Source: an uncultured Microbacteriaceae bacterium (GTDB lineage: Bacteria; Actinomycetota; Actinomycetes; Actinomycetales; Microbacteriaceae). Taken from it: a stretch of 64,000 nt of DNA. Numbering within the stretch: the stretch's first letter is position 1; every line of letters begins with the position of its first letter. The stretch is from NCBI GenBank assembly GCA_934661165.1, contig CAKUJB010000001.1:1889-65888 (forward strand). The letters run 5' to 3'. The translations under genes were made by a program, and so were the position numbers. Below the pieces are notes generated by a model. That model did no database searches and was not told the DNA's origin. It was given only the letters and a program-made list of their open reading frames with translations. Below are positions 1,313-7,605 of the stretch, one piece after another.

Positions 1313-1331
1313 AGGGGAACTGACTTCCCCT
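1313..1331 (-). terminator. short stem-loop overlapping the stop codon of the last island gene
   Basis: AGGGGAA (1313-1319) pairs with TTCCCCT (1325-1331) around a 5-nt loop. On the minus strand a TTTT run follows about 12 nt downstream. Only 7 bp, so weak. Confidence 0.3.
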
Positions 1332-2466
1332 ATGAACTGCCCAGCGAGTCGCCCGCACCCGAGGACTTCTCTTGTTGATATTGCTCCAGCGGATCGAGAA
1401 GTTTGATGTCAGTGACTTCGGTGACGCCCTCTTCGACACTGAGCTTGATCATGACCCGGACCGCTGCCTCGTCCTGCGCATGGAAGTAGTGATCATTCCA
1501 GTCCTCAAGGAGTTCCACGCCAGAACCCTCATCCATGAACCAGTCGGACTTAGCGACGAAACCCTCGAAGTAGACCGTTGCTTCCGCGGTCGCGATTACT
1601 AGGTCACCGCTCGTAACAAGCTCAAACTCAGACTGCTGCTCGATATCGGAGATCGTGGCGTCCTCGAGTCCCGGAGCCGAGAACTGAACGAACTCGGGGT
1701 AGTCGTAGTCACCGCCGTACACCATTTGCAGCGACACGCTCTCTCCCACGAGAGAAAGGAGTGCATTCGTTGCTGCTGTCGCGAGGGCTGCCTCACGTTC
1801 CGCTTGCTCTGTTGCCGCCACAAGAGCGTCAACTTGTTGCTTCGCCGCCCAGACATTCTTCGCCAGCTGCACGGTTGCATGCTCGCCGGGTAGGCGGAGC
1901 ACATCTTCGACAAGATCCGGGTGGAAGCCCTTCCCGTCCTCGGCAAGGAAGCCAGTATCTGCAGTCACGAAAATCACCGTGTCCTCGGCGCGGCTGGCGG
2001 CTGCGCGGCTGAGCAGGCTCTCCCAGATCACGGCGTCGCGGAAGCCAGCCGATGCATGATCAGTACCGACCGCGTGAAACGGTCGGCGACGCTCAAGGTC
2101 GCGCGCCACGAGTCTCTCAAGCGCGATGCCTGGCACAGGAGCGAGCGCAACCCCGGGCCGACTGAGCAAGTCGTCAAAGTTTGCATCGATCTGCTCCGCG
2201 AGCCGGTCGAACGCCTCCCTTAGCTGACTCGCTGGCAGGTGCATCGACGCGCCCAGCCGTGCTGCGCGATCGACCACTGCATCCGCTTCTCCACGGGTTA
2301 CGAGTAGCTCCTCGCGCTGCTGACGTCGGAGTTCCTGAAGCACAACAACCGGATAGACCACTTCGCAGTGGCCTGCCGAGGCGAGGGTGAGCAGGGCTGG
2401 TCCGGCCCCGGACATCAGCCATAGATCGCGATGGACAGCATTGGAGTCGAGAACGACGACGATCAT
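1330..2466 (-). CDS. PIN-like (DUF4935-type) nuclease-domain protein with uncharacterised acidic C-terminal domain
   Basis: 378-aa ORF. The N-terminus MIVVVLDSNAV ... VVLQEL ... IFVTADTGF shows the D/E/D acidic pattern of PIN-like folds. The C-terminal ~150 aa is acidic with no motif I recognise. ATGA overlap (2463-2466) with the PP2C gene. Confidence 0.7.
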   Translation of the reverse strand: MIVVVLDSNAVHRDLWLMSGAGPALLTLASAGHCEVVYPVVVLQELRRQQREELLVTRGEADAVVDRAARLGASMHLPASQLREAFDRLAEQIDANFDDLLSRPGVALAPVPGIALERLVARDLERRRPFHAVGTDHASAGFRDAVIWESLLSRAAASRAEDTVIFVTADTGFLAEDGKGFHPDLVEDVLRLPGEHATVQLAKNVWAAKQQVDALVAATEQAEREAALATAATNALLSLVGESVSLQMVYGGDYDYPEFVQFSAPGLEDATISDIEQQSEFELVTSGDLVIATAEATVYFEGFVAKSDWFMDEGSGVELLEDWNDHYFHAQDEAAVRVMIKLSVEEGVTEVTDIKLLDPLEQYQQEKSSGAGDSLGSS

Positions 2467-3431
2467 GGTTGCGCCTCCCTCGGATTGGTACCTGCGGGTT
2501 CAGCGGGCTCATCATCGTTGCTCGTCGAGTCCTGTGCCAGGGCGATCAGGACGAGCGAGCAGTCGTCGTGGGTGCGGGGCACGATGACGTCGCGGAGGGT
2601 TTCGGCGAGTTGCTCGTGCATTGTCTCGGTGGGTAGATCGCGGCAGGCCTGCAGCAGCTTCGAGCAGGCACCAGCCATAGTGCGGGTGCTTCGTATGTAG
2701 AGGGAGGCCTCCGGACCGTCAGACATCATTACGAAGCCCGTCACCGCCCGGGAGGACGTCGTCACCCGGCCCCGGTAGACGCGAATCGAGCCAGCAGCAT
2801 CGCGGGAGGTGATGAACTTCGTTTCGTTGATGAACTCACCGTTGTCGGGGATGCCGAGTGCTCGGACGACCCGAGTTCCGCCCTTGAGGACGTGCTCCAC
2901 ACCGATGACACCGTCGCCGAGGTGCAGCGTGATGAAGCGGTCGCCGCGTACTGCCACCACGAGCAAAGTCGCGGCCAGATCACGGACATCGCACTTGATC
3001 AAGGGTTCAGCGCTGCGGTCGGGTAGGTCGAGCCGGGCTCGGTCGTCGGCGGAGACATCGAGCCCTTTGGCGGCACTCGTGACCAGGGCATTCAGTAGAT
3101 CGGTAGCCAAGCTCGCCCGCAATGTGCCCAGGTTGTTCGTCGCCCGGAACAGTTGATCGAACTGCTGAGCGACCAAGCGCGACGCAAGATCGGCCAGGAT
3201 CTCCGCGCCGTAGTGTGACAACTTCGCCGAGCCTGCGCCATCGGCGAGGGATCCCACCACGGTCCCATCGGAGTCCGCCAAGACCGCAACGTGGTCCTGA
3301 CACGGGACCGAGGCATCAGCGTGAGAGCGCCCCTGATGTCGTGCGGATGCGAAGCGCCACTCGATGGCGTCGAGCGCCTCCTCGCGTGAAGGAGGTTCCA
3401 GTTTGCTCCTCAGAACTTGAAGTCCGACCAT
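2463..3431 (-). CDS. PP2C-family Ser/Thr protein phosphatase (TerY-P triad component, YegK/PphC-like)
   Basis: 322-aa ORF with RHQGRSHADASVPCQD, LADGAGSAKLSHYGA, FVMMSDG and THDDCSLV, the bacterial PP2C_2-type metal-binding Asp motifs. The true ATG at 3431 overlaps the vWA gene end by 22 nt. Confidence 0.85.
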   Translation of the reverse strand: MVGLQVLRSKLEPPSREEALDAIEWRFASARHQGRSHADASVPCQDHVAVLADSDGTVVGSLADGAGSAKLSHYGAEILADLASRLVAQQFDQLFRATNNLGTLRASLATDLLNALVTSAAKGLDVSADDRARLDLPDRSAEPLIKCDVRDLAATLLVVAVRGDRFITLHLGDGVIGVEHVLKGGTRVVRALGIPDNGEFINETKFITSRDAAGSIRVYRGRVTTSSRAVTGFVMMSDGPEASLYIRSTRTMAGACSKLLQACRDLPTETMHEQLAETLRDVIVPRTHDDCSLVLIALAQDSTSNDDEPAEPAGTNPREAQP

Positions 3432-4093
3432 GACTTGATCCCGTCCACGTCGATCGGGACGCCGTCACCCGGCGTCGACTGCGAGACCCGAGACACCGAG
3501 GCGCTCAGCCACGAGAAGAAAGACTGGAAGTTGAGACCCTGAAGCTTGAACGCCGGGCGTGGAGCGCTGAAGCGGTTCAGGGTTGCCATGTCAGCACTAG
3601 CCCCGATGCCGATCGGGAACACGACGAGCTTCCGGTCTGCGGCAAGCTGCTGGACGCGGCCGACCTGTGCGTCTAGGACCGACGCGGAGCCGGTCGGCTG
3701 CCCATCGGTCATGAGCACGAGCCACGGCTGGTAGTAGTCGACACCGTTGTCCTTGTACGCCTGCTTCCGCTCGTCGAGCAGGTCGAGGGAGAGTTTCACC
3801 GCTTCCCCGAGCGGCGTGTCCCCGGTCGCACGCAGGACCGGCGGCCGCGACTGCGTCGCAACCGTTTGGAAGTCGGTCTCCTTCTGCACGGGGCCGAACG
3901 TGACGATGCTGATCTCGGCACTGTACTTCGCGATCTCGTCCTGGTTGATCGCCTGATAGAAGGAGGCGACGCCGGAGTTGAGCTCCTGGATGGGCGCGCC
4001 GCTCATCGAGCCGGATGCGTCGAGGCAGAGGCTGATTGCGACGCGGGAGGTTGGGTTGTCTACGAGGTCGTCGAGATCGATCAAGCTGGCCAT
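3410..4093 (-). CDS. von Willebrand factor A domain protein (TerY/YegL-like)
   Basis: 227-aa ORF with MIDAS motif LCLDASGSMSG (DxSxS), then GDTPLGEA and LVLMTDGQPT. GAAGGAA RBS lies 7 nt upstream of the ATG. Confidence 0.88.
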   Translation of the reverse strand: MASLIDLDDLVDNPTSRVAISLCLDASGSMSGAPIQELNSGVASFYQAINQDEIAKYSAEISIVTFGPVQKETDFQTVATQSRPPVLRATGDTPLGEAVKLSLDLLDERKQAYKDNGVDYYQPWLVLMTDGQPTGSASVLDAQVGRVQQLAADRKLVVFPIGIGASADMATLNRFSAPRPAFKLQGLNFQSFFSWLSASVSRVSQSTPGDGVPIDVDGIKSWSDFKF

Positions 4094-4123: not shown

Positions 4124-5686
4124 CTATCTACCCGCGGAGGCGATAGCAGAGATGATGAGGATCGCGATGAGGATCCCGAAGCCCCATCCGAAGATCGCGC
4201 CCCATGGCACGTTGCTCTTCGCGGGTTGCGGAGTGACCTTGGAGGCGGTCGACGACTTCGTAACCGATGGCGTCGTTTTCGCGAGAGAGGCGTGATGCCG
4301 GCAGTAGCCGCCACGCTCGTCGTGCATCCACTTGGCGGCCATGTAGCCGCACTGCTTGCAGCCGACCTGACGCCAGCAATCGTCGCAGTACTGAGCGCGG
4401 CCGCGGGTCGGTGTGAAGGTTTTGCCGCACACCGGGTTGTTACACTGAATGGCCTGCTTGAGAGACGAGCCGTAGCTCCGGCCGCCGCCCGTCGACGCGT
4501 AGCCACCGGCCCGCGCGGTGGCCCGAACTCGAGGTCGACGGACGTGAAGATCGCAGAAGATGTAGAGGTTCTCCTCAGCAGGGATGAACTTGTTCGTGCA
4601 CCCCTCGTACTTGCATTGCTTCATCTTCCGGCGCGTCGGGAAGATGTCCATGGCCATCGGGTCGTTCCTAAGCATGTTGTCGGCGCTGCTCAGGTAGCCG
4701 TTGAATAACTCTGCCCACTCGGTGGTCGAATACCTCCTCTGAGGTGTGAAGTGGGAGCCGCCCTTCTTGAAGGTCTCTGCGAAGGCCTCTCGGACTTTGT
4801 AGGTCATGTGGTTCCAGATGAAGCCCCACTTGCCAGGGGGAACCACGTCGTCTTTGCCCTCGTAGGCGAAGACGCCTGCCTTGATGTTCTCGGCGGGAGA
4901 GCCGCCGCCGACAGCCGAATAGGGTGGCTTGCCGGGCATCATGATCATGAAGAGCAGCGTCGCGATGGCGAAGTTCTCCATCTCCTGCGTCCGCAGGAAG
5001 GTCTTGAAGTCCTTGCCGCTCACTTCGGGCGGTGTGAAGTTCGCCGTGCCGACGGAGCACGGGTACCCCTCGATCTGGTAGCTGTCGCAGTCGACGAAGT
5101 ACACCTCTGTGGGCGATACCACGAGGATGTTCGCAGCATTGATGTCGCCAAGGATGACCCGGCGGTCGTTCAGGTAGCGGATCTTGTCGAGGATGGTGAG
5201 GCACAGCCTGATGGTGTCCTTCCGGGTCCACCTGGGGAACTTCGTCGGCAGGAGCATCGGCATGAAGACCGATTTGCTCAACTCGACGCCCTTCGCCTGC
5301 GGCATGAGGTACCCGATGAACTCGTTCGACGAGTTAAAGAGGATGGCCTCGGGGAAGCAGATGCCGGCATAGCGGATCGGCTTCGAGATCATGGTTCGCA
5401 GCTTGGCGAGGCGATCACTGGTTATCTTGTCCCGCTTGTAGATCTTCGCGACGTACCCGCTTGCGTTCGTGGTGAAGACCGCTCCTTCGCCACCCTCGGC
5501 GAGCTTCTCAGCGACGACGATCTGGCGCTGCATGGTCCCGTCGTCTGCGACGACAGTCGTGTTGACGCGCGCGCCCTTCGCCACCTGCTCGCCAGGTACT
5601 TCGCCTCGGACTGGCAATACTTTGCCCGGCGCGGCGATGCGTGCCACATGGGCGAAACGCGGGGCTTCTGGAACCGTCATCGTCAT
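4124..5686 (-). CDS. atypical Ser/Thr protein kinase (YegI-like) with Cys-rich Zn-ribbon region and C-terminal transmembrane anchor
   Basis: Kinase motifs: LAEGGEGAVF (Gly loop), YVAKIY (Lys), ILGDINAANILV (catalytic loop), FVDCDS (DFG equivalent), GTANFTPPE (APE-like). Three CxxC/CxxxxC-type clusters are followed by VPWGAIFGWGFGILIAILIISAIASAG. The start is set at ATG 5686 because of the ATGA overlap with the upstream stop; the ORF track start is 5716. Confidence 0.85.
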   Translation of the reverse strand: MTMTVPEAPRFAHVARIAAPGKVLPVRGEVPGEQVAKGARVNTTVVADDGTMQRQIVVAEKLAEGGEGAVFTTNASGYVAKIYKRDKITSDRLAKLRTMISKPIRYAGICFPEAILFNSSNEFIGYLMPQAKGVELSKSVFMPMLLPTKFPRWTRKDTIRLCLTILDKIRYLNDRRVILGDINAANILVVSPTEVYFVDCDSYQIEGYPCSVGTANFTPPEVSGKDFKTFLRTQEMENFAIATLLFMIMMPGKPPYSAVGGGSPAENIKAGVFAYEGKDDVVPPGKWGFIWNHMTYKVREAFAETFKKGGSHFTPQRRYSTTEWAELFNGYLSSADNMLRNDPMAMDIFPTRRKMKQCKYEGCTNKFIPAEENLYIFCDLHVRRPRVRATARAGGYASTGGGRSYGSSLKQAIQCNNPVCGKTFTPTRGRAQYCDDCWRQVGCKQCGYMAAKWMHDERGGYCRHHASLAKTTPSVTKSSTASKVTPQPAKSNVPWGAIFGWGFGILIAILIISAIASAGR

Positions 5687-6318
5687 GACTTGCGCAGCCC
5701 GACTCGCTCCCACCACGGCTCCGGCGTTGCCACGGGCGCTGCGGGCGCCACCCTCGAGCTAGCTGCTCTGGGCATGGACGTGCTCTTCGGGCCGTCGGTC
5801 CGAAGCAGATTTGAGAAAGCTTCCACCCGACCGCTTCCCGCTACGCGCGAGACGACCATGGTCTGACCCCTACGAGGGCGGACCGACTCGAACTCGACGA
5901 TGCGTTGGAGGTCCTTCGCGAGAGCTCGGTCCTGGGTGATGAAGTGGAGGTTCGCTTGCGTGCGGAACTTCAGGGCCACTGACAGGAGGACGGCATCGGC
6001 GAAGGGGTCGTTCGCGTCGCCGGCGACTTCGACCGTGCCGGTCTTGACGAGAGGGATCAGCTTCGCCAGCGTGTACTTTGCACGCTCGGCCAGGCCCTCC
6101 TTTTGAGTAGAACGAGAGTGCTTCACGAGTTCCTCGTGATTCCTCGCCGCGAGGATCAGTCGGCCGGTCCCCGAGAGGCGAGGTATCTCGTGTGACCAGA
6201 ACGTCGCTTCCTTTCCAGCGTCCAAGATGATCTGCTCACCCTTGCGATCGTCACCCTTCCAGCACGCTACGAGGAGGGCCGAGGTATCGAGGAAGATCAG
6301 CGTGCTCGTCCGCGTCAT
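5683..6318 (-). CDS. PIN-domain protein with disordered C-terminal tail
   Basis: 211-aa ORF with TLIFLDTSALL (first PIN Asp), DPFADAVLL and HFITQDRALAKDL (distal Asp), followed by a Ser/Pro/Ala-rich tail. ATGA overlaps at both ends (6315-6318 and 5683-5686). Confidence 0.65.
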   Translation of the reverse strand: MTRTSTLIFLDTSALLVACWKGDDRKGEQIILDAGKEATFWSHEIPRLSGTGRLILAARNHEELVKHSRSTQKEGLAERAKYTLAKLIPLVKTGTVEVAGDANDPFADAVLLSVALKFRTQANLHFITQDRALAKDLQRIVEFESVRPRRGQTMVVSRVAGSGRVEAFSNLLRTDGPKSTSMPRAASSRVAPAAPVATPEPWWERVGLRKS

Positions 6319-7130
6319 GCCACGTCCCCGCTCGATCCGTACCCGAGGATTTTGCTCCCGGTCGCGGACGCCGTCTCGGCCTCTCCCCAGGCCGCAATCT
6401 TGCTGGTCGGGGGTACGGTCGTCGTTCCGGGGGCAGCAGGGCTGACTGTGGCGGCCAGTACGGCTCCGACGAAGCCGAGCGCCTTCGACCGAGGCTGGGC
6501 CGGAGCACTCCCCGGAGACAGTGTCGACGCCTGAGTGTGCATCTGAAAGCGAAGCTTGGATATCCGACGCTGGGGTCGAGGAGCAGAAAGGTCCAGCAGG
6601 CGTCTGTGTATCCGTGCTGTGTTATTCACGATCTTGGAGGAGCTGCTCATCGCAGAGTTGCCCGTGCGAGCCTTAGACGCAGCTTGTTTCCGGACAACCG
6701 CATTGCCGATGTAGGTCGAGCGACTCAGGCCGTAGCCGTACAGCCTCTGGTTGCGTCCGGTGACGACACCTGCCGTCCAGCTCCGACTTGAGCCGCTCCC
6801 TGATCGGAACCTGCTGCCCATCCTGTTGACGACTTTGTTCCCGATGTCCTGGGCCCGGGACTTCGAGTAGCCCTTCGCCTGGTACTGACCGGCGATCTTG
6901 CCGGCCACGAACGACCGAGTGTTTGCCGAGTAGGAAGCGCCCGAGGTTCTTCCAACTGAGGTGCCGTGGCTCGAAGACGAGATCCGGCCGGACCCCCTCT
7001 TGCTCCGTCCCGAAGAACTCCCGCCGCTGTAGCTCGACCGCGACGAGTTCGAGCCGAACCTGCCCCGGCCGTAGCTAGATCTTCCGCCCCCATAGCTACG
7101 ACCGCCTCCCCCACCAGACCTGGCCATCAC
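6315..7130 (-). CDS. Ser/Gly/Arg-rich low-complexity protein (RSYG/RGG-like repeats), unknown function
   Basis: 271-aa ORF starting MMARSGGGGGRSYGGGRSSYGRGRFGSNSSRSSYSGGSSSGRSKRGSGR, with one hydrophobic stretch ALGFVGAVLAATV. GTG at 7130 or ATG at 7127, preceded by AGGGGG. The stop is coupled (ATGA) to the next gene. No homology-type motif, so the coding status rests on length, coupling and position. Confidence 0.55.
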   Translation of the reverse strand: MMARSGGGGGRSYGGGRSSYGRGRFGSNSSRSSYSGGSSSGRSKRGSGRISSSSHGTSVGRTSGASYSANTRSFVAGKIAGQYQAKGYSKSRAQDIGNKVVNRMGSRFRSGSGSSRSWTAGVVTGRNQRLYGYGLSRSTYIGNAVVRKQAASKARTGNSAMSSSSKIVNNTARIHRRLLDLSAPRPQRRISKLRFQMHTQASTLSPGSAPAQPRSKALGFVGAVLAATVSPAAPGTTTVPPTSKIAAWGEAETASATGSKILGYGSSGDVA

Positions 7131-7139
7131 ACCCCCTGA

Positions 7140-7322
7140 TCGAACGTGCTCTTCAGTCTATTGGTGGGCGTAGACATCGGAGCTTGCCGGGCGACCAGCG
7201 ACCTGTCGAGGATCACGCTCGAAGAGCTGCGGCACACGCACGCGACCCTGCTGCGGGCACTCCAGGAGCACCTCAAGGTGGTGGAGGAGCGCCTTGGTCA
7301 CCCAGTATCACCACCAAGATGA
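7140..7322 (+). pseudogene. tyrosine recombinase (phage-type integrase) C-terminal remnant
   Basis: Own translation of the stop-to-stop frame gives ...DLSRITLEELRHTHATLLRALQEHLKVVEERLGHPVSPPR*. The LRHTHAT and ERLGH boxes of tyrosine integrases are present. There is no start codon, no N-terminal or core domain, and the ORF ends before the catalytic Tyr. Confidence 0.7.
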
Positions 7323-7474
7323 ATATCTAGAGGTAGGTCGCACCGACAGTGCAGAAGCAGCCTGCCAGCTGCCTCGTCGCACTCGTCGCCAGCGGATAAA
7401 GTCCCGCGTCCGAGACCGAATCCGTCCATGAGCGGAGCGTTGCGCAAACCGACGAGCGCATGAAACCGAAATCG

Positions 7475-7508
7475 CTCCTGATCTAGGACCGAAATCCCAG
7501 ATCAGGAG
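7475..7508. repeat. 10-bp perfect inverted repeat next to attR
   Basis: CTCCTGATCT (7475-7484) and AGATCAGGAG (7499-7508) with a 14-nt loop, 7 nt from the attR core. It lies downstream of the tRNA 3' end on the minus strand. Confidence 0.6.
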
Positions 7509-7514
7509 CCATTC

Positions 7515-7543
7515 CACCACTGTGCGCGAGGGGGGACTTGAAC
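7515..7543. repeat. attR: 29-bp direct repeat overlapping the 3' end of tRNA-Leu
   Basis: Identical to 1127-1155. It covers the last 21 nt of the tRNA (7523-7543) plus 8 nt downstream. Confidence 0.9.
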
Positions 7544-7605
7544 CCCCACGCCCTTTCGGGCACTAGCACCTCAAGCTAGCGCGTCTGCCATTCCGCCACC
7601 CGCGC
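7523..7605 (-). tRNA. tRNA-Leu (anticodon GAG)
   Basis: Manual cloverleaf: acceptor GCGCGGG/CTCGCGC (one G-U), anticodon stem CTAGC/GCTAG with loop TTGAGGT, long variable arm TGCCCGAAAGGGCGT, T-arm GGGGG-TTCAAGT-CCCCC, discriminator A. CCA is not encoded. Confidence 0.9.

Follow-up and report, generated by a model that had tools for sequence, protein, structure and literature searches.

What does a bacterial protein do that is built largely from serine, glycine, arginine and tyrosine, and whose gene stands at the head of an operon for a protein kinase and a phosphatase? Such a gene, here called gene A, is found in a stretch of 64,000 nucleotides (nt) from an uncultured Microbacteriaceae bacterium (assembly GCA_934661165.1, contig CAKUJB010000001.1, positions 1,889 to 65,888), hereafter the window. 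On the minus strand, gene A is followed in order by genes for a PIN-like protein (B), a kinase (C), a TerY-like vWA protein (D), a PP2C phosphatase (E) and a PIN_12 protein. We confirmed gene A as a real, constrained protein-coding gene. Its product is modular, comprising an N-terminal disordered region, a duplicated core and a tail with short motifs, and belongs to a tiny family that has no annotation in Pfam, NCBIfam, PHROGs or PADLOC. Protein A is probably a client of the kinase/PP2C pair of a TerY-P-type conflict system. The fuller reading that we favour is tentative, and we rate its chances at slightly below even: A would be the exchangeable input or adaptor subunit of a TerY-P-type switch that controls the PIN nuclease, tethered by its motifs, binding a polyanion and serving as client of kinase and PP2C.

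Coding status of gene A

The original prediction placed an open reading frame (ORF) at 6315..7130 of the minus strand, where it starts with GTG and encodes 271 amino acids (aa). The ORF is present, but its extra first methionine stems from this upstream GTG, and an ATG at 7127 is favoured. A Shine-Dalgarno-like AGGGGG (7132..7137, minus) is separated from the ATG by 4 nt but from the GTG by a single nt, while every homologue starts with MAR, MAK or MAG (MARSGG in the window). Because of these homologue starts and the spacing, we prefer ATG 7127, which is almost certainly the true start. Gene A then spans 6315..7127 on the minus strand, ends with a TGA (6315-6317) and encodes a basic, mostly disordered protein of 270 aa.

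Several lines of evidence speak for translation. The GC content by codon position is 0.52/0.67/0.74, and the third-position value is the highest of the three frames (0.52 and 0.67 in the other two) and resembles that of the neighbouring genes on the same genomic island (0.67-0.86). Among 5.8 billion proteins searched, 16 homologues with 43-76% identity were found, and at the loci recovered for four of them the gene order with kinase, vWA and PP2C is shared. About 60 nt 5' of the ATG are conserved in an upstream alignment with the closest cassettes (L001-L003), and ATGA stop/start overlaps chain A to B and B to the kinase gene C. Compared with four homologues, the 88 codons of the core gave a ratio of non-synonymous to synonymous substitutions (dN/dS) of 0.37 in a close pair and of 0.08 and 0.22 otherwise, with a non-synonymous divergence of just 0.07-0.21 and synonymous sites near saturation against distant homologues. 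The flanks evolve faster: N-terminal region and tail showed dN/dS values of 0.6-0.8 in the close pair (0.79 for the N-terminal region against L001) and fit an exposed, conflict-facing or disordered module.

As a fallback, the original prediction had considered a non-coding leader that is open by chance in GC-rich DNA. Long spurious ORFs are indeed numerous in high-GC DNA, with dozens in the ORF list of this window, and a second-position GC of 0.67 is atypical, although the latter is due to Gly, Ser, Arg and Ala codons. However, a chance ORF would be at odds with homologues down to 43% identity, with a mean column identity of 82% in the core (11 homologues), with the low core dN/dS at saturated synonymous sites, with the Shine-Dalgarno-like sequence, ATG start and ATGA coupling, and with the position of gene A being kept in cassettes of several genera. 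The fallback is out, and we consider its probability practically nil. That gene A is the first gene of its operon was in turn borne out: upstream lies a tRNA-Leu gene with a terminator-like hairpin, and since this hairpin follows the tRNA, the transcript of gene A must begin within about 350 nt.

Architecture of protein A

Protein A is rich in Ser (19.3%), Gly (15.2%), Ala (11.1%) and Arg (10.7%), and 41 Lys and Arg residues stand against 5 Asp and Glu. AlphaFold2 (AF2), supplied with an alignment of 16 sequences, predicted a mostly disordered protein with a mean pLDDT (score of the predicted local distance difference test) of 48 and was confident just at residues 68-102, which lie in the core.

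This core (aa 63-150, about 88 aa; 6678..6941, minus) was delimited by conservation and hhalign. It consists of two tandem units of about 32 aa of a GxxxG type, S-[F/W]-x-A-G-x-x-x-G...G-Y...S...I-G-N-x-V-V. Repeat 1 (aa 69-100; 6828-6923, minus) and repeat 2 (aa 114-145; 6693-6788, minus) align to each other with an hhalign probability of 96.9% (E 1.9e-10), and repeat 1 is predicted to form a helical hairpin (residues 68-102, pLDDT 81-88). Otherwise the core is an orphan: no relatives were found in Pfam, NCBIfam, PHROG, PADLOC or the PDB sequences, where profile matches remained at noise level, and an exhaustive profile search returned only 12 clusters among 1.84 billion representative proteins and no bridge to a known family.

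One resemblance kept recurring. The core might be a mimic of the N-terminal domain of the ribosomal protein uS5, or a copy of it that has diverged, and A would then be a ribosome-directed decoy or targeting subunit. A weak match to the Pfam Ribosomal_S5 N-domain (PF00333) was the commonest one, found in 8 of the 16 members (best E 0.012), the top PDB profile match was a uS5 chain (7pwf_C, E 0.26; SWTAGVVTGRNQGLYGYG in register with RFRAHVIVGNRDGFIGYG), and actinobacterial uS5 proteins in the inspected loci carry an R/G/D-rich N-terminal extension. However, all these scores are non-significant. A comparison by hhalign with 80 actinobacterial uS5 sequences gave P 0.044 and a probability of 1.2% over 26 columns, and the search of 1.84 billion proteins produced neither bridging sequences nor uS5 itself. 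Furthermore, the matching segment is repeat 2, whereas repeat 1 of the same unit is predicted to be helical and not a beta hairpin. We rejected uS5 homology as an unsupported resemblance given the non-significant scores, the internal repeat and the helical prediction, and a ribosome-directed role of A is very unlikely. The 80 rpsE genes were collected with a bait alignment, and the returned loci are real data. In the inspected loci (L049-L128), the Arg/Gly/Asp-rich extension of actinobacterial uS5 comprises about 30-70 residues before the conserved domain. It is an RG-rich disordered example from the host, with a composition unlike that of A, as acidic residues are present.

The tail of A (aa 151-270; 6318..6677, minus) was delimited by conservation and composition and is predicted to be disordered. 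It carries five short motifs on the minus strand: SKIVNN (6621-6638), SKLRFQ (6543-6560), SKALGF (6471-6488), SKIAAW (6387-6404) and SKILGY (6339-6356). All fit S-K-[I/L/A]-x-x-[aromatic or N/Q]. Their positions are fixed in all actinobacterial homologues of A, while the linkers between them vary, and none of 20000 shuffles matched the four SK[IL] occurrences of the tail. The single hydrophobic patch emphasized in the original prediction, ALGFVGAVLAATV (aa 216-228), dissolves into these elements: its first residues belong to a conserved RSK-x-LGF motif, and the remainder is variable linker, with ILGFDNNRPLTDRP as the counterpart in homologue P0005. A membrane segment at this patch was rejected, as its hydrophobicity is not conserved among homologues.

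The N-terminal region (aa 1-62; 6942..7127, minus), defined by composition, consists of 34% Ser, 29% Gly, 16% Arg and 5% Tyr (83% together) and lacks acidic residues. Its counterparts in homologues with a recognizable core anchor are 19-90 aa long (34-90 aa in full-length members), with 63-84% S+G+R+Y and 0-1 acidic residues; the 19-20 aa of P0012 and P0013 as called possibly reflect 5'-truncated gene calls. Full-length forms contain 8-12 Arg and 2-7 Tyr. These regions cannot be aligned in detail, and the unusual composition of A is thus conserved as composition, not as sequence. Of the earlier description as an RSYG/RGG-repeat, Ser-rich protein, composition and low complexity hold, whereas direct reading of protein A found no strict RGG tripeptide, but GGR, RG/GRG and S-Y-G/S instead. 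Measured against RGG or prion-like domains, the region is acid-free and predicted to be disordered, and it has several SY[G/S] and RG/GGR motifs. Because strict RGG tripeptides are lacking, 'RGG-like' serves as a compositional label only.

Within this region, GGGRSYG (aa 7-13; 7089-7109, minus) recurs in the linker of kinase C (aa 410-416; 4469-4489, minus), as the original prediction had pointed out. At the DNA level, 16 of the 21 nt are identical between both copies, and Tandem Repeats Finder detected no tandem DNA repeat at A or at the shared heptapeptide. Given the 5 mismatches and the lack of a tandem repeat, the sharing is therefore not a nucleotide repeat. Block shuffles preserving local composition yielded a 7-mer shared by A and the kinase in 0.2% of cases. 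Of five orthologous kinases, three keep the motif (GGARSYG in L001, AYRSYG in L005), and it is missing from L004 and L006; since its conservation in the kinases is only partial, we take it as weak evidence.

These features invite a different scenario, in which A would chiefly be a multi-site phospho-substrate with a condensate-forming G/S/R/Y region. The kinase would dissolve these condensates and PP2C would restore them, while the tail would have no docking role. The 52 Ser and 10 Tyr of A would fit, as would Arg/Tyr stickers on a Gly/Ser background that is conserved as composition, and several orthologous kinases have an R-S-Y-G/S-type motif in their linker, which is rich in S/T/R/Y. Precedents exist in CotH with CotB/CotG (PMC7821199) and in the clustering of Rv1747 (PMC9312465). 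However, conservation within the family is lowest in the G/S/R/Y region, which is also optional among the wider relatives, the strongest constraint falls on the core and the tail motifs, most sister cassettes encode an acidic protein at the position of A, and GGGRSYG is missing from two of the five kinases examined. We thus consider a condensate scaffold without tail docking rather improbable.

Position A in related cassettes

The order A-B-C-D-E was present at all nine loci recovered for four homologues of A (L001-L007), in two Leucobacter genomes and in the B-family loci L011-L013. Together with the ATGA chain, this shared order ties A to the kinase/vWA/PP2C set, both physically and in evolution, as had been predicted. 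In all related loci inspected, the vWA and PP2C genes are neighbours with the same orientation. A survey of 185,579 species genomes found 14 loci of the B family, 17 of the kinase family and 4 of the A core, which come from Micrococcales, Propionibacteriales and Coriobacteriia as well as a small number of Fibrobacterota. Related cassettes adjoin integrases, insertion sequence elements, TrwC, TrbL or ParB, in one case a TIR protein and in another a GmrSD-like gene. The cassette is rare, conserved and mobile.

A KIxGW-type motif, of the kind carried by the tail of A, was found in the protein encoded directly upstream of B at 12 of 14 genome loci and at 8 of 9 metagenome loci readable from the protein start; the latter exception is L139, a distant relative. 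By a rough estimate, about 0.01 such motifs are expected by chance per protein of 200 aa. The proteins themselves differ widely. In Leucobacter a G/S/R/Y-type protein is encoded there, and it has three to four SK motifs (three to five in this type overall). In Coriobacteriia it is acidic, begins at the extreme N-terminus with M-[G/S/R/E]-K-I-x-G-W or MGL[I/V]GW and has a helical C-terminal domain. In Demequina and in one metagenome-assembled genome (L014) it is a P-loop protein of 850-854 aa ending in ...SKIAGW or ...SKITRF. As far as their sequences can tell, the KIxGW-type motif is the only feature common to these otherwise unrelated position-A proteins. Since the residue before its Lys is G, S, R or E in Coriobacteriia, and thus not always Ser/Thr, the motif more likely serves for docking than as a phospho-acceptor. 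Long forms of A (P0010-P0013 and others) join the basic half, through an acidic linker, to a helical domain of the Coriobacteriia type (E 2e-8). Because of this fusion A belongs to the same exchangeable series, and the A of the window, without such a domain, is a short form.

Fibrobacter triads lack B, the zinc-ribbon and membrane part of the kinase, and a KIxGW protein. In the available loci, B and this kinase region are gained or lost together, and phyletic patterns do not separate them. In front of the Fibrobacter triads (L043-L046, about 5300-6000) a conserved protein of about 200 aa (MRPKEFIDMFPYGYTRLRNQNGSVAL...) is encoded that has no Pfam match; it may be an alternative effector or adaptor.

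A further observation concerns a Coriobacteriaceae cassette with an acidic MSKIVGW protein (L022, 5057-5278, equal to L011, 5069-5290). About 1.7 kb upstream of B it contains an ORF of 73 aa with 63% S+G+R+Y (MSRYGHYSSGRSSYSGGRGSYSGGG...), followed by an ORF of 211 aa that is rich in L/E/D/K/R and looks like a coiled coil by eye. The pair may represent a split version of the basic-plus-acidic arrangement. The 73-aa ORF was considered as a homologue of the A core, and the alignment was unconvincing.

The core also occurs in a second context. Small basic proteins of 131-199 aa, found in Collinsella and in contigs of lower GC (L010 0.39, L008 0.53), contain it, start with MARGGRGSRG... and end in Y-G/S-K repeats (YGKNYGKRYR). 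Their genes are followed by a gene for a helical protein, without the triad; in Collinsella this protein has 909 aa and a DUF6273 domain. In Collinsella locus L030 (6908-10058; 2113-4677), the small A-like gene overlaps the start of the 909-aa DUF6273 gene, and a gene for a PHP + SMC-like ATPase lies upstream. In L008 and L010, too, the N-terminal sequence of the DUF6273 protein, LSFADLFYEIY, is encoded downstream of A-like genes. The core of A is a portable module.

The cassette partners

Gene B (5683..6318, minus), whose ATG overlaps the stop of gene A, encodes a PIN-like nuclease of 211 aa with a disordered linker, identified through AF2, Foldseek and invariant residues. Its model reached a pLDDT of 81 and a predicted template modelling score of 0.75. 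The top Foldseek matches in the PDB were PIN domains (SMG6, EST1A, AF0591; probability 1.00, E 3e-3 to 1e-2, template modelling scores 0.4-0.6). The residues D11, E63, D101, D104, D108 and D130 are invariant, as are the C-terminal W202-W203. No match to the Pfam PIN model was obtained for B, while source annotations of its relatives read 'PIN domain' or 'FCF1'. The model predicts a PIN fold with conserved acidic active-site residues.

In VapBC modules the antitoxin gene lies upstream of the PIN toxin gene, and the arrangement of A and B recalls this organisation. A might accordingly be a VapB-like antitoxin or inhibitor of B, with its tail motifs in the active-site groove of the PIN domain, while kinase, PP2C and vWA control the release of the nuclease. 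Gene A is located upstream of the PIN gene and overlaps it by ATGA, its protein is partly disordered, including the tail, KIxGW co-occurs with B and is missing from related triads without B, and B retains the invariant acidic residues typical of active PIN nucleases. However, A is larger than the supposed toxin and has no Pfam or NCBIfam domain, and no DNA-binding antitoxin domain (AbrB, RHH, HTH, PhD) is recognisable in it. The pair never forms a two-gene module and is always accompanied by kinase, vWA and PP2C, and the disordered tail of B, a protein of about 210 aa, ends with WW. Coriobacteriia carry the KIxGW motif on another protein, at its very N-terminus. Moreover, one cassette (L035) has an apparently intact B without A; were A an obligatory antitoxin, such a state would be lethal. 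An antitoxin role of A is therefore doubtful.

Gene C (4124..5686, minus) encodes a membrane-anchored protein similar to Ser/Thr kinases, recognized by a weak Pkinase match (E 1.6e-4, 21.6 bits vs a curated Pfam cut-off of 31.7) and by motifs that are invariant in eight orthologues (GEGGEG, VAKIY, LGDINxxN, FVDCD). Its start is likely ATG 5686, overlapping the stop of B by ATGA. C-terminal to the kinase domain, Cys pairs follow (C368/C373, C425/C430, CKQC...CRHH), and their spacing together with a weak TIGR04272 match points to putative zinc ribbons. The protein also has the S/T/G/R/Y linker that bears GGGRSYG, and direct reading of its sequence shows a hydrophobic C-terminal anchor preceded by WGAIFGW. 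In Slackia sp. ZJ119 (L012, 7684-9897), the cassette kinase has 737 aa and a DUF6273-like domain beyond the membrane segment, and some members would accordingly be kinases of a receptor type whose sensor is external.

Gene D (3410..4093, minus) encodes the TerY-like vWA protein (PF00092, E 4.2e-9, above the curated cut-off; phrog_28389, E 3e-52), whose metal ion-dependent adhesion site (MIDAS) motif DxSxS is intact as DASGSM. Gene E (2463..3431, minus) encodes a PP2C-family phosphatase (PF13672 PP2C_2, E 3.4e-39). Judged by kinase motifs, MIDAS, PP2C_2 and the acidic PIN residues, the enzymes of the cassette look intact. A sixth gene (1330..2466, minus), coupled to gene E by an ATGA overlap, encodes a PIN_12-domain protein of 378 aa (PF16289, E 2.3e-17). 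It is not found downstream of the cassette in L001-L007; this copy has it as an additional, second PIN-type gene, located in the part of the island with the lowest GC (0.57-0.58).

Conserved short motifs with Trp also stand at the C-terminus of three partners or close to it, and they resemble I-x-G-W in the tail of A: WGAIFGW in kinase C (4184-4204; WGAIxGW, before the anchor), DGIKSW at the C-terminus of vWA protein D (near 3410-3440; DGI[K/R]GW in vWA proteins) and PWWERVG at the C-terminus of B (near 5683-5730, with the invariant WW).

A putative docking and phosphorylation switch

How could these parts work together? We envision the cassette as a TerY-P-type phosphorylation switch to which a nuclease has been added. 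The five tail motifs would most likely dock A, in a multivalent manner, onto a constant component of the cassette, for which the PIN protein B and the C-terminal region of the kinase are the best candidates. Core and G/S/R/Y region would most likely bind a polyanion, either a nucleic acid (RNA or DNA) or an acidic partner. Through the many Ser and Tyr sites of A, its charge could be switched by kinase and PP2C, and hence its binding or self-association. This phospho-switch might gate the nuclease during phage or plasmid attack.

Several observations weigh against this adaptor model. The AF2 model of A is confident for one hairpin alone, and the predicted disorder may partly reflect the shallow alignment of 16 sequences. 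Since A is very basic and the Coriobacteriia protein very acidic, polyanion binding is not a conserved function of position A. Locus L035 (Propionibacteriaceae) comprises B-C-D-E without an A-type gene; A is therefore dispensable for at least one variant, or this locus is decayed. The core is present in the stand-alone Collinsella proteins beside the DUF6273 protein, without the triad, and thus its role is not tied to the kinase. Finally, PADLOC gave no meaningful match for the six proteins of the window (none for the vWA protein at E <= 0.01, marginal and unrelated ones for kinase and PP2C), and because its models found no match, the defence role is deduced from context alone.

A bolder reading takes the motif as the central element. 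A, as a prion-like disordered protein rich in G/S/R/Y, would be an RNA- or polyanion-binding, multi-phosphorylated scaffold of an undescribed mobile immunity cassette of five genes, and KIxGW a universal plug for interchangeable sensors on a PIN-kinase-vWA-PP2C engine. These sensors would be basic and disordered, acidic and helical, or large P-loop NTPases. We regard this as possible, yet unlikely. Our preferred view of A remains that of an exchangeable adaptor of a TerY-P-type switch.

The genomic island

The cassette lies on an island of about 6.4 kb with a GC content of 0.58-0.66, compared with 0.70-0.78 outside. Its integration site is a tRNA-Leu(GAG) gene (7522..7605, minus; ARAGORN), and its far end is marked by a copy of the 3' part of this tRNA (1098-1169). 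The direct repeat between this copy and the tRNA end (7486-7605) comprises 72 nt with an identical core of 28 nt. Next to gene A, a fragment of 58 codons (7146..7322, plus; ORF translation 'LRHTHATLL...ERLGH') is left of what we take, from the classic motif of the family, to be the C-terminal part of a tyrosine recombinase. Intact integrases flank the cassette in L001-L003. Because this integrase fragment is all that remains, the island is a decayed and probably immobile integrative element. Its left junction (1081-1127) contains a 21-nt inverted repeat, 95% complementary with a 5-nt loop, and a 16-bp hairpin with a T-rich tail is located just downstream of tRNA-Leu (7474-7509). Both hairpins, which flank the insertion, are probably terminators.

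Relation to known systems

TerY-P triads are widespread in defence islands, and their definition reportedly goes back to Anantharaman, Iyer & Aravind in 2012. To our knowledge, neither the targets of the TerY-P kinase and phosphatase nor the signal route to an effector have been established. As summarised in two later sources, the triad consists of a TerY-like vWA protein, a PP2C phosphatase and a Ser/Thr kinase fused to a C-terminal zinc ribbon (PMC11090510, PMC4978471). The operon of the window contains the vWA and PP2C members and probably, as far as its sequence indicates, the kinase with zinc ribbon. As in TerY-P, one operon unites neighbouring genes for vWA, PP2C and kinase, the kinase has C-terminal Cys-rich modules resembling zinc ribbons, and the cassette is mobile and located beside nuclease or restriction-type genes. 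In contrast, a PIN-like nuclease gene and an exchangeable KIxGW first gene precede the triad here, the kinase is tail-anchored, and one relative carries an extracytoplasmic DUF6273 domain. A combination of PIN nuclease, tail-anchored kinase and KIxGW first gene with TerY-P was not described in the searchable literature, a scope that did not extend to the 2012 TerY-P paper.

An experimental precedent for a role of such triads in defence is a stand-alone antiphage system of the TerY-P-like kind (Gao et al. 2020), described in PMC11090510 as having its kinase fused to an OB fold. It comprises the same three enzyme types. However, no OB fold is evident here, the kinase has putative zinc ribbons and a membrane anchor instead, A and B are additional, and the operon gave no significant PADLOC match.

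Other analogies concern protein A itself. The CotH kinase of Bacillus subtilis polyphosphorylates the Ser-rich disordered coat proteins CotB and CotG (PMC7821199). There, too, a disordered protein rich in Ser, Lys/Arg and Tyr is paired with an atypical kinase. However, CotG is a structural protein of the Firmicutes spore coat, while A belongs to a mobile nuclease cassette of non-sporulating Actinomycetota and is a predicted client, not a homologue. The Y-G/S-K ends of the small Collinsella relatives (YGKNYGKRYR) appear similar to the CotG repeats. With eukaryotic RGG/SYG domains of the FUS/LAF-1 type and with mycobacterial Rv1747, a phospho-regulated clustering module (PMC9312465; bioRxiv 10.1101/2020.08.05.239012), A shares an acid-free Gly/Ser background with Arg/Tyr, predicted disorder and a composition that is kept while the sequence drifts, and the adjacent kinase/PP2C pair could regulate A. 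Nevertheless, A has neither strict RGG nor an RRM or other RNA-binding domain, its region measures 62 aa and is optional family-wide, and Rv1747 is a functional analogy that is not homologous to A.

The cassette is a compact and testable case, in which one nuclease, a kinase/phosphatase pair and a vWA protein are combined with a first gene that is swapped while a motif of 5-6 residues is kept. If KIxGW is a docking peptide, the input interface of the system would be identified, and a handle for finding the client of the TerY-P switch would be at hand. The G/S/R/Y form of A would also be a rare case of a bacterial low-complexity protein whose gene adjoins those of its own kinase and phosphatase, and it could serve to test how phosphorylation controls disordered proteins in prokaryotes.

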